DNA from: Fimicolochytrium jonesii
Taxonomy: Eukaryota
Length of the DNA: 64,000 nucleotides
Reading direction: 5' to 3'
NCBI RefSeq assembly: GCF_025526975.1
Contig: NW_026515676.1
Location: 62,001 to 126,000 of the forward strand
Below are positions 2,166-50,589 of this stretch, one piece after another; positions within the stretch are counted from its first letter, which is position 1, and each line of letters starts with the position of its first letter. The notes under the pieces are model-generated. The model worked only from the letters and a program-made list of their open reading frames with translations. It was not told where the DNA came from and searched no databases. Made by a program: the position numbers and the translations under genes.

Positions 2166-5100
2166 TCAAGCACTCGGTTCGACATTATCATCGCCTTCCA
2201 ACGCCTCAGCCGAGGTCGCGCTCCGAGACTTCCTGCTGCTTGCATCGTTGTCATCAAACTCCGAGTCTTTCGGCGTTTTCGCCTTGTCATCAGCTATGAA
2301 GAGGGATGAAGAACCATCGACCGTTTAAACGATAGATTCAATGAAAAAGAGCGTTCATGACATACCTGCAAGCTTGATGTCATTGAAATCCGTATTCTTT
2401 TTCTTGAGAAGCCAATCTTCACTAGTGGGATCAAGCGGGACGTCTTCTTTGCGCTGATCTCGCTTCTGACCAGATTCATTTGCTCTATGATGGCAATAGA
2501 TGAACGCATGTTCGGCTGCGGATGCGGAACGTTATCCTGATGTACCTGAACTTCTGGAAATCAGAGTCAAATGTTTCCTGCTGCAGTGAATTGCTTTTCC
2601 CAAACTTTCGGGCCTGAAGAAAGAAAGTTAGAAAGATTGACCAGCTCATCAATCACAACCGGGAAAGGTCTTACCGAAAATGTGGAGTTAACCACCGACT
2701 GTGCAAACGGAACGTACATGTCCTGCACAACAGGCGGTGGAGGCTCGACCTACGCAAAAGAAAGCGTTGCATAAGAGTTGCCTGCCCGATGTGCATATTC
2801 ATATACAAAAGCCTACCTCCGGCTCAAAGGATCGCTCAGATGCCGCTTTTGGTTGTGGTTTCGCAACTTCAGCTTCTGGGGCTTCTGTGGGCTCTTCCTC
2901 TGCATTGCTTTCCGTCCGAGTGCTGTTGGAAGTATCATCAATATCTGGCATATTTGCATACCGAGGATTTGTGGCTTCCCACTTACTTTTCTGATTCTCT
3001 ACTCACGACAGCGACCGAAGTTGATAAGATGAGTGAAATGCATTCTGGAGGTCATGACTGTTCAAAGTTCATACCTAGTAGCTGGAAAGATGTCGAACGG
3101 AGACGCGACGACCGATTGTGCGCCGGAGCTCGGAGGCCGGCGCCCGCTCTTTGGTCGCTTCGTGCGCTTCTCATGGGTACTGTTGCGGTAGACCGTTCGT
3201 GTTAGCTACCCAAGCATGGGACGCAGATACCATAGGGCAAGACTTACTCGTCCTTGTCCTCATCCGAGCTGTATCCTTCTTCCGAGTCGGAAGACTTGCG
3301 GACATCTTGACTGCTACGGATCTGTACATTGTTCCGTCGCAGGTACCGCACTTGCTCTCGGGTGAGTTCTTTGCAAAACGTGTCCGGCTTGTCCTATAGG
3401 ACGAGAAAGCAACGTTAGCGCCTCATTTCCTCGAACACTGTCTTTACTGTCATATTTACCTCCAACAAGGCAAAGAAGTTTTGACCCATGTGCTCCCGGA
3501 GAGCAGTTGCAACGTACTCAAAGTTCTCAACCAGGAACTGCGAGAAATCCAATGAAATTAGTGCAAGGTTCCAATGATCTCAATGGACACAACAACTTAC
3601 GATGAGAGCGTTTGCTGCGTAGTTCTGACTATCCGGGTGTCCCACGTTCGCAATCACGTTCAGGAGACCACTGACAACCTGCGATTCGATCATACGCTCT
3701 GCTAGAGTCCGGTTTATGGCCGCGATGACTCTTTATGAGAAAGTTAGAGATGCGTCCTGTTTCACATTTACTGGGATGCACATACCCCAGGAGTTTTGCA
3801 GCATATGCTTGTTGCATGTAGCCTGCAGTGACAGTTTCGCTTTGTCCTTTGCTCTCGTCCCCTGCTTTTGCCACAAGCCCGCCCCAAGCTCCTGTAGTTT
3901 TTCCCGCATCCCCTTTCCCCCGTCTTCTGCGATCTGTGGTTCTCTAGTCGTTTGAAAAATCTCCATAGCGAGGAACAGAAAAAGGATGCGCTTCACCTTC
4001 TGGTAGCTCCTCCTTTACGTCTTCCACAGTATTCTTGAGAATCGTGATGAGCTGCGTAATGATGATGTCTTGCAGAGCTGGCCGCTTGAGCAGTTCACGT
4101 AAGATCTCGTAACCTGCAAATGGTGCAACCGCTATCAGCGCTGCGCTCATATACTAGTATCCACAAAGTGAACCCACCCTCGTATTGAATCTGTATATGC
4201 GGATTCTTGAGCAATGCGATGGTAGCTTCGACAATCGAAGGATGGATCGCTTGAATGGAGGGCTACCAGAGTCAGACAGGAGGACAGGCCGCGGGACTGA
4301 GATGAATTGTCACCTACAAGCAACAGCCGAAGCGCTTGCCCCGCCATTTGCTGGGACGTGGGTGGAGGTCCCTGAGAGGTGAGCAGAGAGAGCAAGGACT
4401 TGTAGACTTGCATCAGGAATTTCGGATTGCCCTGCGGTCCTCTGTGGTGAGCCTTTTGACTAGCCGTAGACTGCAGAAGACAAAAACTTACCACTCCGAG
4501 CTGATATAAAAGGTTCCTCGCATAGTCTTGCGTAATTTCGGAGCGGGATCTGCCAAGACAATCCGAGACGGCGCGCACACCTGGAATATGGAGGTGTGAG
4601 CGGATGATGTCCACTCGTCTGAGGATAAGTCAACATATACCATAGCTTTCGCAGATGAATTCCTTGTATCTTCGGCCCGCTTGTGCGACACTGAGAAGGA
4701 CTCTCAAAGCTTCCGCCTTGTCTGGCTGTTGAAAAGTTGAGGACGTGAGCGACAAACGATAATCTTCGACAGTATAGGTGGATACCTCCTTGACTTGCGC
4801 CAGTCCGAGGATTTCTAAAACCGTGAGAACCCCCCCAACCTCCAAGAACTCTGCGAGGAAACGATGACCACTGGACGCAGAGATGAATACATTGATCGCT
4901 TGGAGTTGAATAGATAGGCTATGCCCGAGAAGGTAACTTTGCGAGGGTTTCAGTAAATGGCATCGCTTTTCATTCCCCTCTTCACATCAGAGCTCATACC
5001 TCAAGCGTAGCCATGCGGAAATCCTTGTCAGAAAGAGACTAGCTCCATTGCTAAACTCCCTTTCCAGTTGAGGGCCCGTTTTGTTCCGATTATGGGTAAC

Positions 5101-41169: not shown

Positions 41170-41549
41170 TGTGCCGCCTCCTAACATCCCTGTCAATTCG
41201 TGAGCGTTCAAAGTCCTCCGCCAGATAGTAAACCACTTATCAGGTCATACTTGTGTAGGCCAGAAAGAGAAGACCTTCCCTCTCGCTGAAGTCTTTATTG
41301 CAGTCCGTGGATATGTACGTATGTATAGTCTGGCGCTCTCCTTCTGACGGTTCCCACCCGTGCGAATTGTGCACCCTGTCCGAAAGAGCGAAGCGGTGCT
41401 GCCGACCAACGCGTTGACACTCCCTTCTCGCCTTCCTCGCCATTCAGTTCGCAACTCGACAAACTACGGACCTTCTTGACGATACAGATACAGTATCCAG
41501 GGCGGATGAGCCTTCATATTCAGTCGCAAGCCAGTTTTTCTTCTCCGGA

Positions 41550-42107
41550 ATGTTGGCCAATCACGCCTCCTTGCTAAGGCAAGGTTCCTACCGCCGTCTC
41601 CTGTCCAAACCCCAGTTCCGCACAACCCACCTCCGTCTCTCGTCCACCCAACCACCAGCAGCATCCTCCAGCAGCAGCGCCACCGCTGCTGCATCCCCCG
41701 CCCGCGGCTGGCGCAAATACGCCCATCAATTCCGCAACCACCCGGCATCTCATTTGGTCTCCTTCGCCCTCCTGCACGAACTAACCGCAGTCATCCCACT
41801 GCCCTTGATCTACTTCCTCCTTTCAACCACCGAACTACCGATCCCTTTCCCCGACGATATCCTCGCGGACGGGAACCGACGGATGGGCAAGATGCTAAAG
41901 TATTTTGGGGTCGGGGAAGGGATCAGGGAGGACAGCAAGGCGATGCTGTATATGGCGACGAGTTACGCGGTGGTCAAGGCTGCGATGCCGTTGAGGATTG
42001 GGCTGTGTTTTGTCTTGACGCCGTGGTTTGCGAGGGTTGCTGTGGTACCGGTGCAGAATGGGGTGAGGAGATTCGCGGGGTTGTTTGGACGGTCAAAGAG
42101 TTCTTAG
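41550..42107 (+). CDS. MRX11: Mrx11/FLILHELTA-family mitochondrial membrane protein, intronless
   Basis: Presequence-like N-terminus, PASHLVSFALLHELTAVIPL and YAVVKAAMPLRI...TPWFAR. Confidence 0.85.
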   Translation: MLANHASLLRQGSYRRLLSKPQFRTTHLRLSSTQPPAASSSSSATAAASPARGWRKYAHQFRNHPASHLVSFALLHELTAVIPLPLIYFLLSTTELPIPFPDDILADGNRRMGKMLKYFGVGEGIREDSKAMLYMATSYAVVKAAMPLRIGLCFVLTPWFARVAVVPVQNGVRRFAGLFGRSKSS

Positions 42108-42344: not shown

Positions 42345-43059
42345 CTAATCATCCAACCTACGCTTAGCTTTGTGCGCCTGCGCTCTCACATCCTCTTTGA
42401 CTTTCTGTGCCGCGGTCTTATAACCGCCCTTAGTGCCCAGATTGAAGCCCATGCTCCTTAACTTCTTTGCCACAGTGGGCACTATGGCCGCAGTGATGCC
42501 CAACTTGATGGGCAGAAACATTTTCGTCATCGCCATTGCCAACAGTATGTTGGTCAACATGGCGTGAGTGGCTGGGTTCTTCAGCCACTCGGGCATGTGC
42601 CGTTCCCACCACGTCGGTTCCTTCGCTGTTTCGTCGTTCAACGCATCTGCCGCGCGAAGCTCGGGTTCTGGGTCGGCCGGGTGGAAGCCCAGGAACTCCT
42701 TGATCTTCCTGAACGCGGTCTTGATCTGTTTCTGGTCGATTCCCAGTACCATGATGGAGGTGAGGCAGGCGCAGAAGGTCATGAAGGACAGGGTGAGATA
42801 GGTGATGGTCGCTATCGGGCCGTATTCGCGGAGGAGGGATTTGAAGTCGCGCTTCGGCGGTTCTTGGGCGCCAGGTGGCGGTGGCGGTGGCGTGTTGAGC
42901 GGTGATTCGGAGGTGGTGGAGGCGAACCGGGTGTTTATGCGGGTTGCTGATGTTGCTGTCGATGGGGAACGTAAGGAATTGCTTCGGGCAAACGAGTGGA
43001 ATCCCGATTGTTGTTGTCGCTGGCCGGCGGCGTTCGGTTGCCATGCATCCCGGAAATCA
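42345..43059 (-). CDS. FAM210/DUF1279 membrane domain; apparently the last exon of the 42345-44594 fusion gene
   Basis: FKSLLREYGPIATITYLTLS...LLAMAMTKMFLPIKLGITAAIVPTVAKKL. There is no in-frame ATG upstream of the domain within the exon, and a CAG acceptor lies at 43060-43062. Confidence 0.78.
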
Positions 43060-43132
43060 CTGAGATGGAGAATGGTTGGCGTCTGTCCACTGCATTGCTT
43101 GACTGAGAAACGAAGGTCACTGATTCACTCAC

Positions 43133-44594
43133 CTCATACTGGGAAACTTCCGAGGTACAGCTGTAGGGATCATCAATCGCACGCCATGGAGATCTCGCGT
43201 TGCCTTCAACTGGCAGGCGAGGCGAGATCTACAGAACGATTTGGTTGTGAGAACCGGTCCGCGGTACTTGTCCCCACCAGCGTAGCATGCTTACCCATCC
43301 GTCCGACCAACAGCATACTCTAGCATGTCTTCCTCCTCCTCTGTCACGGGTGGAAGCTTGTTTTGGTAAGCCGGGTCCACTATAGGTAGCGCAACTCGAT
43401 CAGTCTTATGTCCGGAAGACAGTGGACGTTCACAGATGCATACCAATAACATGGCAGGTCGCACACTCCAAGTTGCCTCCGCATGTGCCTTCAAGGGACG
43501 GTAGGTCGTTGTCCCTGCCAATTTCCATCAATCTCGCTCCAACTGGCACCTCGAAAGTCTCCGTAGCATTGTCCGGTAGGATATACGTCAGAGAGATCGT
43601 TTCCTGGCTTGCCGCAGGGTTCGGCTGAGACTCGGCTCCCGCGCTCGACTTCGAAATCTCCGTTCTGTATATGCCCTCCTGCTCTTCTTTGGTCAAGCCC
43701 AATCGTCCCCTCCACTTGTCCCAGAGTACTTTGTTCTCCAACGCTGAGTCCAGCAACTTCCCTGCGTCTTCCTTTTCGAGAAGGCCGTACCAATTTCCGG
43801 CGGGGTAAACCACGGCGTTCCCTGCGTGTTTGTGGCCACCGATATGTGACACACCGTAGACCTTAACGGTGTCGGAGAGACCCCTCTTTGCCACTTCCTT
43901 CTTCAAGCTGTCATACAGTGGTAATCCCTTATCTCCGCACCGACAGTCTCGTGCACCATGGATGCAAACCAATATATGAAGTTTGTGGGGATCCTTCTCG
44001 AAGGCGATGCTGCTCTTCGAGCCTGCGGGCTCGGAGAAGAGCTTAGCGACTTTGGGGAAATCCGACACGGATACTGACGGAATGCGAATGCCGTCCGGTA
44101 GGATCAGAAGAGACCGGGAGCTGTCGTCCGATACCGGGTCAACATCAGGGGAAACGATACTACTCGCCCCATAGTCTGTCAAAGCTGATTGTAGAGCTGC
44201 GTAGTATTCATCCTGTTCGTTGATCTTCGATATCCAAGGGTTCGCACCTGCGCCAGAACGATATAAGCAGCCTGAAGAAATAGCACTCGACAGACAACGA
44301 GCACCTACGAGAGTTGACCAGGACGTGGCGCTTGTATTTGCCGACGGTGGCGACGTGCGGTGGCAAGTCGCTTGCACTATCCTCCTCATCTTTTCGTTCC
44401 TTCTTATCCTTCTTGCTGCCAAGAGAGGGTCGAGTAGTCGAAAAAGCAGCCACGGTTTCGTTTCTCGCATTGGCCCTCACAAGTGCGGCAGAACCGCGCG
44501 GGAATGCTCGTATCGTGAGAGAAGGTGAGACTGACGCCAGCCGAGACGCCCTGAGGGCGGACCTCGGGAGTGTTGTTCTTAAAGCGCTCAACAT
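43133..44594 (-). CDS. Mitochondrial Aim32/Apd1 (sucrase-ferredoxin-like 2Fe-2S) domain fused to an adrenodoxin-type 2Fe-2S ferredoxin
   Basis: Presequence MLSALRTTLPRS..., then RHVLV, LVCIHGARDCRCG, SHIGGHKHAGN..VYP.G.WYG and WRGRLGL. These are followed by EGTCGGNLECATCHV...EEEDML...SRLACQL. Introns are 44248-44308, 43380-43443 and 43229-43294. Confidence 0.88.
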
Positions 44595-44667: not shown

Positions 44668-47600
44668 ATGGACCTTCGCGCTGGAAACTGTGGTAAGTAA
44701 GACCAGCGGGCTATGAGGTTGTCTGCAGCTCTATCTATCCCCTCACAGTCTCGAGCCCCCTCGCTGGCAAGCTGTTGTGGTTCAAGTTAGTTCCTGCGAG
44801 GTCTGTGGGGCTGACCAATGGCGTCGGAGAGGTCGGAGCGGAGAGGCCAGGGGCGCTAGCAACGGAATTCCTTCATTTCGTGGTGATTTCGTGGACAGCG
44901 CCAACCAGTGGCAGAGGAACGCGTTGTTGCGAGCTGAGGTCATGGATATCCCCATTCTTCTTTACCTTACATTCGACTTGCTGGACTGCGGATGCACTGT
45001 GAAACGATGCTAGGTTCTTCGCTGGGCATCTTCTCAAGGGTTCAAATGTCCTTCGTATTAGGTTTGCTGCAGGAAGGGAGCTCTGGACATTCAACCGCGA
45101 AAGGATCCAGCAAGTAGGGCCCTGCTTATGACTCTCCTTCGATTCGACCCGGAAGCAGATTGTCTGAGCAGGCTGGTGTCCGATACAACTCCTGCGATTG
45201 CCAATAAAGCAGAGATTGATGGTCCGTTTGTCCTTCGTCAAGCTTTCTCTCAGAGTCGTTTTGCCACCGTGAATTCGACACCGCGTCTTTTGAATTGACG
45301 GTATCGGACATGGCCCAATCATTTGCGAACGGAGATGCAGCGCACTAACTTGTTGGGTAGCATAGCTCCCTGAGCTTGTGGCTATTATCTCTATACTGTC
45401 TAAAATCTAGCTGAACTCCTGTCGGCGCGAGGTCTGGGTTCTTGTAGTGTCAACTGGGCCGGACCCTTTTCGAGGCGAAGGTTCACTTTCATCCAGCAAA
45501 CGACAAATCCGGCCAGCCACACATCATTTCCGTCGCAGCCAGCAACATGTCTCCAACCGCAAAGAACCATGTACATCAACATGAGCTCTTACTGGCCGAG
45601 GATGATCCATACCTGGCCAACTCTATGCGGCCAGGGGAGTTGACACAAAAGCGGCGCGGGAAGTATGTCGAAATCCCGCAGGTGCTGGATGGCTTCTTCA
45701 TGGTATGCCCGCGTGTTGACTGCTTTCGTCGACATATATAGCGTCCCAGTAGGCTACCCATACCACTTCTGAAGCTAAAGTGCCTACTCGCTCTCTATTA
45801 GCTAAATAAAGCACCAGCAGAAGATCCCGACAACGTCTACTACCTCGACTTGACGGGGGAAAACCTACGGCATGTCATTGAAGATGACCTCACATTGTTC
45901 GCCAATCTGGAGATTCTGCATTGCGGTGAGAACAACTTGCCGCTGGCAAAACTGGGGGTTCTCCCGGGGCTGAGAAGGCTGGTGATGCCTTGCAACGATG
46001 TGACGGATCTGGATTTGGAGGTTGAAGGGAGATTTCTGGGGCTTGAGGTTCGTAAGGTCGTCTCGTATGCGGGATCGTTTCCGTATGGTGGGGAAGAACC
46101 ACAGCCCTGTAAGGCCCAATCTATCCTGATATACTCCTGAATTACCGAAGTAGGAATTGGACCTCTCCTACAACCGATTAACACCCGCCGGTATCACGGT
46201 CTTGGCCTCGCTTCCCTCTCTCCGTCGTCTCGACCTCTCCACCAACGGGCTCACATCATTACCAACAACGCTGATGGACATGACTAATTGGCGGGAACGT
46301 GTGATCGAGAGTCTTTTGCCGGAGGAAGATTTGCAGGCTTTGGAGGGGTGGTTGAAGGCTGAACTGCCGGCGCATGGTGACGGGAAGGAGGCGAAGGGTG
46401 GAAAGGAGATGAATGGGAAGGAGAAGAAAGTGTCTAAGGCAGAGGACGCAGCGGCGGCATCTTCGCCGTCCGTTATAGCGGAAACGGCGACAAAGTCGAA
46501 TGATGTTCCGGCGACTGAACGACCCGCTGAAACCCCAGCCGACCCAGGCTCCGAAGAAAACGTGGCGGACGGGTCCACCTCAGACCGTCCAACAACAATC
46601 CCGCAAGTTGTACAAGTGGCCAAAGAAATGGCCGTCACGATTGACGAAGACGACGATGATGCATCTATAGCCACCGCCTCTGATGCGGGCGACGCGGAGG
46701 CGCCAGATGCTGCAGATTCAGAGGAAGTAGCGCATAGCGAGGAAGATGTTGAGGAGAGCGCCGTCGACCGGAACGCAGATGTGGCGGACGAGGAGAATAC
46801 AGTGGGAGAGCTGGATGCCAATAGGGCGCAGAATATCTTGAACAGTTCCGGTGGACCGGGTTTCAAACGGCTGGAGCTGCTATCACTCGAGAACAATCGA
46901 ATCAACAGCCCCGAGACCTTTAGAATCTTAGCGGCACTACCGAAGTAAGATCACTCCTGCCAACATGTCTTGCTTCCGTATTATTACCGACTGACCGCGT
47001 ATTGCATCGCACCAGCTTGAAAACGCTGAACTTGTCTCGGAACCACATCACAACGCTAGCTTTCCTCACCCCAGCCAGAACGCAATCCTCATTTCACGCC
47101 GGAGTTCCAGATACCTCAGAGCCAAGATATGATGGATTCTATTCGTTGGTTGAGGTCAATCTATCTTTCAACAATATCGGATCGCCGGAGCAGCTGACGG
47201 GCGTGATATGGCTGCCTGCGTTGAAGAGAGTTTTCTTGGAAGGGAACCCGGTGATGCAGCGGGTGAATCAAAAAGTCACCATCCGGGATGGGGATTCGGA
47301 TACTGGTGAGCTTCCTACTAACACTAAGCGAAGCAGCGTATGCTCGTTCTAACTCTCCGTGTGGCATACCTTTATAGTCCTGGGCTACCTGCATTTCAAC
47401 CCCCTCTTCGAACTGCCTCAAAAGTACTCCATTCAAATCGCCGATGCCGTTTACAACATTCCCACCACCACCATCCCCTGCCTCTCCCCAACCTCCACTC
47501 TCATGCGCCCAATCGACTCGCCGCGCGAGATCACACCAGACCACGACACCGCCCCCCTCGTCCCACGGCACCTCCACCCAGCCCCTCTCACCCGCCCGGC

Positions 47601-48970
47601 ACAATACCACACCACAATCGCATCCTCCCGCTTCCTTTCCCACCTGCACCGCAAAAACGCGCCACCATCCATCTCCGGTCGCAACATCGTAGCCTCGCAC
47701 ACAGTCTCCGACGCTGGCGAAACGAAATGGACGCTCGAAGCCGGCGTGAAGCGCAAAGCACGGCGAGCGTATGATTTCAGCGATGAGGACTTTAGGGAGA
47801 TTGTGCGGCAGGGATTTATTCCGGATGTGGAGGAGTTGGTGAAGATCGGGGAGGAGAGGGAGATGAGGATGGCGTTGATGGAGGCGATGGGGCAGGGAGG
47901 GTTGGATGGCGGCCGTGATAGTGACGGGAAGATGGGGATGGAACTTGGGGGCCTTGAGAGAGGCGAGGACCGAAAGTCGAGGGGGTCTAGTCCAGGATCA
48001 GAGGGGGCTCGGCTGGAAGACGCCGAACCACTCGATGGGGAGGAACCGCTTCAATACGACCCAACAGCGAAAGACGATACGTTCCTCACCCGCGTGCACA
48101 TCACAGGCGGAGGCGGCCTCGGCTCATCCGACGACCACATGTCCTCGCTCAGCTCATCGCAAGCCTCTGGTCTGTCCACGCCGCCGCGGACGCCATCCCC
48201 GTTTTCCACCATCGACGTCAACATCCTCGACGACGACACAGACGCGGACCTGCCGCCGCTGCCGAAAACACTGACGGGTGCGCTGCGGGCTCTCCGCCAC
48301 GCGCTGTCGAATCCAGTCAGCGGGTGGGCGCCGGTGCCGAAGCCGTATGCGCTGCAGACGCTTGCGTCGACGCAGAAGGCTTATCAGCATCAGGTGGTTG
48401 CTGGGGGAAGGGGGAAGGCTGCGTTTGGAGGTAAAGCGCCATTCCGGTTTACGAAAGGCGGAGGTGCGGGTGGGAAGGGTGGAAATACGGCGGTACTGCC
48501 AAGCCTGCCGCCTAGAGGCACGCCAAAGGGTGGTAGGGTGACGACGAAGAATGCCGGGCCGTCCGATGAGTTCACGCCGATGAGAGAGTTGATGCGAGGC
48601 GTAGATGAGAAGATTGAGATTGTGGAAGAAAGTATCGGTGAGTACAAGGCGTTCATATGGCAGTGCACGCCTCAGGAAAATGGAATCAGCGATACTCATT
48701 ACATCCCTACATCTCCATATACAAGCGGCACTCATGAAACCGGCGCCGGCTTTGCGCTTCGCCATCAGAAACGCCAGTTTGATCCCGCCTTCGCAAAAAC
48801 TGCTTCATCAGGTGCAAACCGAGTACGACAGGATCGAGCGGATGTACACGGTCGCAGCGCTCGCGGAACGAAGTGCTGCAGCTCGCAAACCGCAGAACGC
48901 AGGTGCAAGGGCCAGTGCAGCAAAAAATGCCGGGAACACGTCACCGAGTGGTGCGAGTGTGGTGGTGTGA
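44668..48970 (+). CDS. XRRA1: XRRA1-like leucine-rich-repeat protein, multi-exon; 5' exons tentative
   Basis: Putative MDLRAGNC/VPARS (compare recalled NCFPAR of XRRA1), then VLDGFFM, LEILHCGENNLPL, LDLSYNRLT..GI..LASLPSLRRLDLSTNGLTSLP, LSLENNRI, LNLSRNHI, FLEGNP, DDTFLT and ALRALRHAL.NP. Confidence 0.75.
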
Positions 48971-49402
48971 GCGGCATCATGCCCCTTCTCCTGTATATAT
49001 GGCCATCATCACTAGATTGCAGGGCAATAAACGTTGCAGCTTGGGCCCGGAGTTGGTTTAGTTCGTTTTATTGTTTTTTTTTAATGTGCTTTTCAAGTTT
49101 TTCTATACAGGGTTCACACCACAACCACGAGTGATGGGGACCAACCACGTTCAGAGAAGCCATTCCGGCCCTCAGGGCCCCCAGCGAAACAACGACCACG
49201 ATACTTTTCCTCCCTTACATGCGAAGGGGACTTGTTGCCTTCGCGACATCCAAGGTTCTATGAAGGCGGATGGATGACGCGTTCCAAAATGGCACTATAT
49301 ATATGTTGTGGGAGACGAAAGGTTCTTAAGATGTTTCGATTGTTTGTCGATCCATAGGTCGTCAGACAAGCGAGGGTACGACTGCTTGGAAGTCGAACAC
49401 TT

Positions 49403-50589
49403 CTATTGGGATTTGCGGAACTCTGAAGGCGCCAAGTTGCCGTTAGTGGCGAATCCTGGACATATGCGAGCCATCGAGTTCAGGCACTTACGTTCCAAGA
49501 CGGGATAGATGCTTTCGAATGCCTCGTAAATCTCGTTACGAAGCTAGGGATGTAAATAAAGAAAATCAGCACCTCGTTTGACAGAGATGATGACAGTGAC
49601 GACTTAAGCATACCTTTGCACCCGTGAGCACGATCTTTCCCGAGACGAAGATCAGTAGCACGATTTTCGGTTTCGCCATACGATAAATCAAGCCCGGGAA
49701 CAACTCAGGTTCGTACTGTGTAGATGGCAAGAGTAACGAGCAATGAGAACAAGGTCTTACGCAACGAGAACGCGATGCCACGACTTACACTGCAGAACGC
49801 TGAGTGAGCCATCGCTAATCCTTCCAGCCTGATGGGGAACTTGACATCGGTCGAACCAACGATGTTTTGTATTTTAAATTCAGCGAATTTCGCAGGGAAT
49901 CCTAACTTCTGGATGATGCGGGCGTATTTCCGGGCGGCCAGCCGAGATTGTTCTTCAGACTTGGCACCCGTGACGACCATTTTGCCAGAGGCGAAGATCA
50001 ACGCAGTTGTTTTCGGTTCGCGAATACGCATAATGACGGCAGCGAAACGCTAGGATATCGGAAGATACCACAAACGAAGAAGTTGCGCAATAGAGATCAG
50101 GACGTGAACGTGATTGAGGAGGCAAAGATTAGCTCAAGTTCCCGAGTGCCACATGGTAGACTAAAGTAGCCTTTGTGATCACCTTAGGGTTGTACTCGGC
50201 ATTTCTAGCGTGCATCGCGATGGTCTTCAAATCCAAACGGCAGTCCAGATTGACGGTCGCAACGATGTTTCTTTTTTGGGCAAGGAAGCAATTGAGAAAC
50301 TCATTTTTGCGAAAATACACCAACCGTGCGGAAGAATCCCGCAGTCCCGCAAGTCCCGCGCCAACGCAATAGGTACCAAGCCCTAGGCTTTTCAGAAAAC
50401 GAAGCCAACGCCAGCAGGGACCAAGAGATCTACCCCACCAAGCTCCGACAATCTACCATATAGACCGATTGATCATATCGGTCCAAGTGGTACTTACTGA
50501 AGCATAGGCTTGATGCCCGAACCAGAAGGTCCGGCATCCTGCTCAGGCGACGCTTCCTGCTCAGCCCTGTCGACAACAGCTGTAGACAT
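49403..50589 (-). CDS. TBP: TATA-binding protein
   Basis: [66 protein letters not shown]...[13 protein letters not shown]...IYPVL. Confidence 0.97.

Follow-up and report, generated by a model that had tools for sequence, protein, structure and literature searches.

Gene structure and domain content

The window, a 64,000-nt stretch of the forward strand of Fimicolochytrium jonesii (assembly GCF_025526975.1, contig NW_026515676.1, positions 62,001 to 126,000), carries on its minus strand five exons separated by four GT-AG introns. The introns measure 61, 64, 66, and 73 nt and lie in phases 1, 1, 2, and 2, respectively, and the joined exons form 662 codons that stay in phase without an internal stop. 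A phase-consistent frame of about 661 amino acids (aa) had been put forward in the initial annotation; its coordinates proved exact, and the 661-aa product is letter-for-letter the annotated NCBI protein of F. jonesii (P0001). The five-exon gene, predicted from the DNA together with that annotation, has the following features:

44309..44594, minus strand: exon 1, aa 1 to 96; putative presequence (about aa 1 to 52) and start of the Suc_Fer-like domain
43444..44247, minus strand: exon 2, aa 96 to 364; Suc_Fer-like/thioredoxin-like ferredoxin domain, first linker, and N-terminal half of the adrenodoxin domain
43832..43966, minus strand: C-x8-C...H-x3-H motif (C190, C199, H230, H234), predicted Aim32/Apd1-type [2Fe-2S] ligands
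43159..43603, minus strand: adrenodoxin/Yah1-type ferredoxin domain, aa 311 to 415, spanning introns 2 and 3
43295..43379, minus strand: exon 3, aa 364 to 392; adrenodoxin domain
43229..43294, minus strand: intron 3, phase 2, donor GTAAGC; internal control with an immediate stop when retained
43133..43228, minus strand: exon 4, aa 392 to 424; fourth ferredoxin cysteine (C397) and conserved tail to PRKFPSM
43060..43132, minus strand: intron 4, 73 nt, phase 2, donor GTGAGT; joins the di-ferredoxin to the FAM210 exon
42345..43059, minus strand: exon 5; linker, then FAM210/DUF1279 domain
42852..43059, minus strand: linker, about aa 422 to 493; conserved short helix, disordered Arg/Ser/Thr-rich stretch, and poly-Pro
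42918..42929, minus strand: RFAS, aa 468 to 471; candidate -2R site for the mitochondrial processing peptidase (MPP) in F. jonesii
42345..42851, minus strand: FAM210/DUF1279 domain, aa 494 to 661, stop codon included

The three domains named in the initial annotation all score above their Pfam cut-offs, and their ligand motifs are intact. In P0001, the Suc_Fer-like domain (PF06999) covers aa 83 to 276 (126 bits versus a cut-off of 34.9), Fer2 covers aa 321 to 402 (31.7 bits versus 21), and FAM210A-B (PF06916) covers aa 496 to 618 (40.9 bits versus 26); exon 2 matches PF06999 at an E value of 1e-32, as well as PF00111. The four residues of the C-x8-C...H-x3-H motif are invariant across 61 aligned sequences, and the adrenodoxin-type ligands (C-x5-C-x2-C...C; C351, C357, C360, and C397) are kept in the same alignment. 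We predict from these residues that the Suc_Fer-like domain carries the bis-histidinyl [2Fe-2S] ligand set of the Aim32/Apd1 type and would bind a cluster accordingly.

Structural comparisons assign the modules similarly. Compared against PDB sequences, the ferredoxin domain matches yeast Yah1 best (2mjd, E value of 9e-26); compared against PDB folds, its top match is 2wlb, the Etp1fd of Schizosaccharomyces pombe Etp1, a protein that consists of Cox15 plus a ferredoxin. The thioredoxin-like ferredoxin domain matches the fold of the Aquifex TLF (1f37, E value of 5e-5). Three ordered modules are apparent in the AlphaFold model, with low confidence at aa 1 to 70 and 441 to 480 (pTM of 0.65 for the di-ferredoxin model and 0.49 for the full-length model). 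The N-terminus combines this low confidence with a composition of eight Arg and no Asp or Glu in aa 1 to 45, and a strong mitochondrial presequence is predicted at about aa 1 to 52. With yeast Aim32/Apd1, the first domain shares PF06999, the CX8C-Xn-HX3H motif (as the Aim32 motif is written in PMC8482512), and a mitochondrial presequence; unlike in the yeast proteins, an adrenodoxin domain follows, and the likeness is one of domain and motif.

The C-terminal part resembles FAM210A/B in possessing PF06916, a hydrophobic helix, and a basic C-terminal helix. The model and hydropathy place hydrophobic helices near residues 496 to 529 and 586 to 626 (with a hydropathy peak of 1.93 at residue 513), followed by the basic C-terminal helix, and the C-tail holds 11 Lys/Arg versus 4 Asp/Glu. 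In mouse, FAM210A resides in the inner membrane (PMC10564795), and FAM210B has been linked to mitochondrial iron import (PMC12904366). The functions assigned to these proteins (cristae remodelling, translation, or iron import) derive from mammals and are not known to extend to fungi.

Distribution and origin of the fusion

The three parts occur together in 8 of 34 homologues of 467 to 2,000 aa, which come from Fimicolochytrium, Powellomyces, two Geranomyces, Thoreauomyces, Spizellomyces sp. ‘palustris’, Gaertneriomyces, and Phlyctochytrium arcticum. The initial annotation had suggested looking for conservation of the fusion in related zoosporic fungi, and this is what we observe: eight taxa have the fused form, whereas the outgroup chytrids have separate genes. 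Polychytrium and Borealophlyctis (Rhizophlyctidales in the NCBI taxonomy) each possess a di-ferredoxin and a stand-alone FAM210 on contigs that differ in length, and stand-alone FAM210 proteins are present in Borealophlyctis, Rhizophlyctis, Batrachochytrium, Polychytrium, and Chytridiales. The di-ferredoxin is without a FAM210 domain in all other fungi examined, and of 60 nonfused matches, 54 end 16 to 22 residues past RLxCQ, 2 stop short of that motif, and the remaining 4 have no ferredoxin. In the eight taxa, two units that relatives encode in distinct genes thus share one reading frame.

Seven of the eight fusion taxa belong to the Spizellomycetales by NCBI taxonomy, with P. arcticum filed under Chytridiales. 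In a tree of 24 FAM210 domains, however, the P. arcticum domain clusters with the fused ones, apart from those of other Phlyctochytrium species. P. arcticum is also known as Triparticalcar arcticum, a spizellomycetalean. All eight fused domains fall into one group of this tree (support 90/73, unstarred), together with two unfused rows, one a Logan fragment and the other an additional copy from P. arcticum. A single origin of the fusion is compatible with this grouping but unproven, since the support is unstarred at 90/73. The extra FAM210 models that P. arcticum has besides its fused gene (P0068 and P0298), possibly duplicates or truncated models, fall in the fused group, and the N-terminus of P0298 is not presequence-like.

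Among shorter proteins, residues 300 to 610 of P0002 returned 71 matches, all at ≤56% coverage, and no fragment spanning the junction. Word-limited searches produced no Spizellomyces punctatus record among either the homologue or the shorter-protein matches. Among the at least 19 metagenome loci listed for 35 of 64 parts of the data, none has a FAM210 match: four loci (L001 to L004) encode an unfused di-ferredoxin, and the remaining loci listed match the ferredoxin part only.

Gene-prediction software might have merged two neighboring genes, in which case FAM210 would be transcribed separately and have a start of its own. For Geranomyces variabilis, two of the five annotations do give separate genes: the clusters of the eight taxa hold 16 records from three accession series, 12 of which are full fusions, and the other 4 are pieces from these two annotations, where the locus is split such that one piece ends FPSMA and the other begins MREYGP. 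That starting Met is confined to Geranomyces and has no presequence behind it, and for both reasons we regard the split models as an annotation choice. Across the junction, moreover, reading frame and sequence are kept in all eight taxa, and in the window, the parts lie only 73 nt apart, with intron-like signals between them. The initial annotation was also correct that the FAM210 exon has no ATG of its own ahead of the domain: the first ATG in the FAM210 frame 3′ of intron 4 is at position 42782 (residue 517), within the first hydrophobic helix. Two separate genes are, on this evidence, highly improbable.

Intron 4 and its retention product

The initial annotation cast intron 4 as a splice switch: retention would yield a soluble di-ferredoxin, and splicing would add FAM210, either as a membrane anchor or as a protein released by MPP. 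Retention does give a complete di-ferredoxin of 424 aa, with a frame that ends FPSMR followed by a stop, as had been stated; the stop was also said to come right after the ferredoxin, and this part did not stand. It lies 26 residues past RLxCQ, whereas unfused chytrid and mortierellalean orthologues end after 16 to 17, and because it sits some 9 residues beyond that point, it is not at the ancestral ferredoxin C-terminus. The stop itself is generic. A phase-2 donor of the form GTAAG or GTGAG puts TAA or TGA in frame, such that a stop upon retention is expected of any such intron; retention of intron 3 in the same gene also stops the frame at once, as does retention of 6 of the 11 predicted phase-2 introns in the window (from an ab initio set of 51 introns that was trained without this gene, whose donor prior favors GTRAG and some of whose models are wrong). 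For the gene itself, the ab initio model recovered introns 1, 3, and 4, but it put the intron 2 donor in the wrong place and merged the gene with the next one downstream.

Intron 4 is the only one of the gene’s four introns without a match to a loose branch-point pattern, which could favor a switch, but such a match is missing from 16 of the 51 predicted introns, and 2 of the 11 predicted phase-2 introns combine both traits of intron 4 (the stop and the missing branch-point match). Its donor, AG/GTGAGT, has the full consensus, and none of the polyadenylation-like hexamers listed falls in intron 4 or at the start of exon 5. Both flanks of the intron are conserved: identity among taxa is 74% in the 8 residues before intron 4 and 46% in the 8 residues after it, versus 19% in the first linker, and the AlphaFold model predicts a short helix across the junction. 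This conservation suggests selection on the spliced product. An in-frame acceptor 43 nt into intron 4 was considered and rejected; the resulting intron would be smaller than those predicted in the window, and the conserved FPSM-S-D-F-R junction would be broken.

Two other observations can be read in favor of a switch. The two split G. variabilis models stop immediately after FPSMA, which, judged from the protein, fits the same phase-2 intron. There is also a precedent in the grasses, where, according to PMC1543663, the sdh2-rps14 locus yields a normal protein and, when alternatively spliced, a fusion precursor cleaved inside mitochondria. In that case, rps14 resides inside an sdh2 intron and both mRNAs are documented, unlike in the chytrid gene, where the partner is the terminal exon. 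With its consensus donor, a stop shared with other introns, and a native C-terminus that is not preserved, intron 4 is no different from ordinary introns; cleavage by MPP would, in addition, make a switch superfluous. We consider regulated retention quite unlikely. A composite reading, in which the switch has been kept in the Powellomycetaceae and splicing also delivers FAM210, either cut or attached depending on the strength of the MPP site, strikes us as distinctly unlikely. Should a switch operate nonetheless, the dose of inner-membrane FAM210 relative to the two-cluster redox protein would be set by one locus, which would suggest that both take part in mitochondrial iron or redox handling.

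Linker sequence and candidate MPP sites

The linker differs from the domains on either side in both order and conservation, with a pLDDT of 37 to 49 over aa 431 to 480 and a pairwise identity of 36% among the eight taxa versus 60 to 69% in the flanking domains. The initial annotation described it as free of acidic residues, which is accurate for the stretch that was quoted, but the whole linker (422 to 493) contains four. It was also held to resemble an internal presequence with an MPP-type site. Here, the resemblance is backed by the orthologues: the published -3R motif, given as R-X-[FYL]-[AS] in PMC8847149, occurs in the linkers of seven of the eight, versus 0.6 expected from shuffles, although these counts are not independent because the eight taxa are related. 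By residues, there are 8 occurrences in 392 linker residues, 4 in 3,966 mature residues, and none in the 171 residues of the first linker.

The specific site that had been named fared less well. F. jonesii is the sole orthologue of the eight without the -3R motif and has the looser RFAS instead, within a region where the alignment shows gaps for most orthologues; the -2R pattern that matches RFAS was added after the absence of -3R had been noticed, making this a post hoc and loose match. In several orthologues, the 23 to 25 residues upstream of the motif hold just 2 to 3 Arg and 1 to 2 acidic residues, which is weak for a presequence.

The stand-alone proteins indicate where the linker may have come from. 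FAM210 proteins of animals and of other chytrids have their own N-terminal presequence, whereas in the chytrid fusion the presequence-like segment is internal. The nearest stand-alone FAM210 (P0043) shows the same order as the fusion, i.e., motif, Ser/Thr-rich spacer, poly-Pro, and domain. Across 14 stand-alone FAM210 proteins (hand-picked as complete-looking from 150 matches), the looser motif is present in 10 and lies 5 to 21 residues ahead of the domain in 6. The linker is, by this comparison, likely a relic presequence of the FAM210 gene, although an MPP motif left over in this way may survive without being cut.

If the product were spliced and imported but stayed whole or mostly whole, FAM210 would anchor the di-ferredoxin to the inner membrane on its matrix side. 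The two hydrophobic segments and basic C-tail of FAM210 fit a hairpin in which the N-terminal domains would remain matrix-exposed, Spizellomyces sp. ‘palustris’ has a linker of just 19 aa, and the conserved -3R site is gone in F. jonesii. Such an arrangement is, however, difficult to square with a linker that is otherwise variable and yet keeps the motif in seven taxa when the first linker has none, and with the di-ferredoxins of the other fungi examined, which do without a FAM210 domain. We view an uncut, anchored protein as unlikely.

Proposed processing and comparison with known tandem precursors

The explanation that we find moderately probable is a spliced tandem precursor that, once imported, is cleaved by MPP to yield a di-ferredoxin soluble in the matrix and a FAM210 protein of the inner membrane. 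All four introns would normally be spliced, such that one mRNA covers both units, and the N-terminal presequence would drive TIM23 import of a 72-kDa precursor. MPP would then remove the presequence and cut again in the linker, at the old FAM210 presequence: in most species at R-x/[FY]-S, followed by Icp55, and in F. jonesii at RF/AS. Assuming cuts near residue 52 and at RF/AS, the 72-kDa precursor would give products of ~46 kDa and ~21 kDa. The FAM210 part would insert in the inner membrane, and the di-ferredoxin would act in the matrix, like its unfused orthologues in fungi. The fusion itself would likely have arisen once, by read-through of two adjacent genes, and we propose that cells tolerated it since MPP gives back the two proteins. 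It can be explained without a functional tie between the partners. Such a tie, linking FAM210 to an Fe-S protein, is nevertheless conceivable given the inner-membrane location of FAM210A and the connection of FAM210B to iron import.

Precursors of this kind have precedents. According to PMC8734313, MPP cuts Arg5,6 internally and requires a strong N-terminal presequence to do so, junction sites are predicted in Etp1, Rsm22-Cox11, Atp25, and RPS14, and the same list of composite precursors includes SPAC22A12.08c and rice RPS14. The chytrid protein is like Arg5,6 and Atp25 of Saccharomyces cerevisiae and Rsm22-Cox11 of S. pombe in having a presequence at the N-terminus and, between the two units, a presequence-like linker that bears a candidate MPP motif; it is unlike them in its partners, which have no known shared pathway, and in being restricted to one chytrid order. 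Cleavage has been demonstrated for Arg5,6 (PMC8734313), whereas in the chytrid fusion we infer it from sequence. As in S. pombe Etp1, which the same source lists as a composite mitochondrial precursor, an adrenodoxin-type ferredoxin is combined with an unrelated inner-membrane protein by way of a junction predicted to be cleavable. The chytrid protein departs from Etp1 in placing the ferredoxin ahead of the membrane part, in having that ferredoxin joined to an Aim32-type domain, in its membrane partner, FAM210, and in a cleavage that is putative.

Among the open-access papers listed by our searches, we found no description of the three-part fusion. The fusion partners are new; the class of tandem mitochondrial precursors is already known, and the chytrid protein would be a lineage-wide, dateable addition to a short published list. 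Outgroups with separate genes, together with the motif in seven taxa, offer a test of whether a relic presequence plus MPP renders fusions harmless, and F. jonesii, where the conserved site has been lost, lends itself to asking whether the protein must be cut at all. If the partners are functionally linked, the fusion would provide a first handle on the role of FAM210 in fungi.

Unfused di-ferredoxins, neighboring genes, and other FAM210 architectures

The unfused two-cluster protein, in which the adrenodoxin domain comes after a Suc_Fer-like one, is widespread: it occurs in chytrids, Mortierellales, Zoopagomycota, and basidiomycetes, with Calcarisporiella and Dispira among the genera represented, and the open-access papers listed by our searches include no description of it. 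Both ligand sets are conserved in these proteins (P0009 to P0034 and P0199 to P0226, the counterpart of window positions 43159 to 44348 on the minus strand). The metagenome locus L001 encodes one at positions 3501 to 4286 (the same match recurs in L002 to L004), in a single uninterrupted frame that, as in the basidiomycete forms, ends just past the ferredoxin.

On the plus strand at 41547 to 42107, some 240 bp from the FAM210 stop, a convergent neighbor encodes a presequence-bearing FLILHELTA protein (PF10306, E value of 5e-15) with a weak match to FAM210 (E value of 0.0035). By sequence comparison, the two are distantly related mitochondrial membrane-protein genes arranged tail to tail. On the upstream side, the fusion gene has a predicted leucine-rich-repeat gene (45547 to 49061, plus strand) as its divergent neighbor, and a TBP gene lies around 49705 to 50046 on the minus strand.

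FAM210 domains are also found next to unrelated sequence in two other fungi, which may represent independent fusions or merged gene models. In Bifiguratus adelaidae (P0182), FAM210 is followed by Ppx-GppA/RTG2 domains, and in Synchytrium endobioticum (P0066), ~1,100 unrelated residues and a presequence-like stretch precede FAM210.
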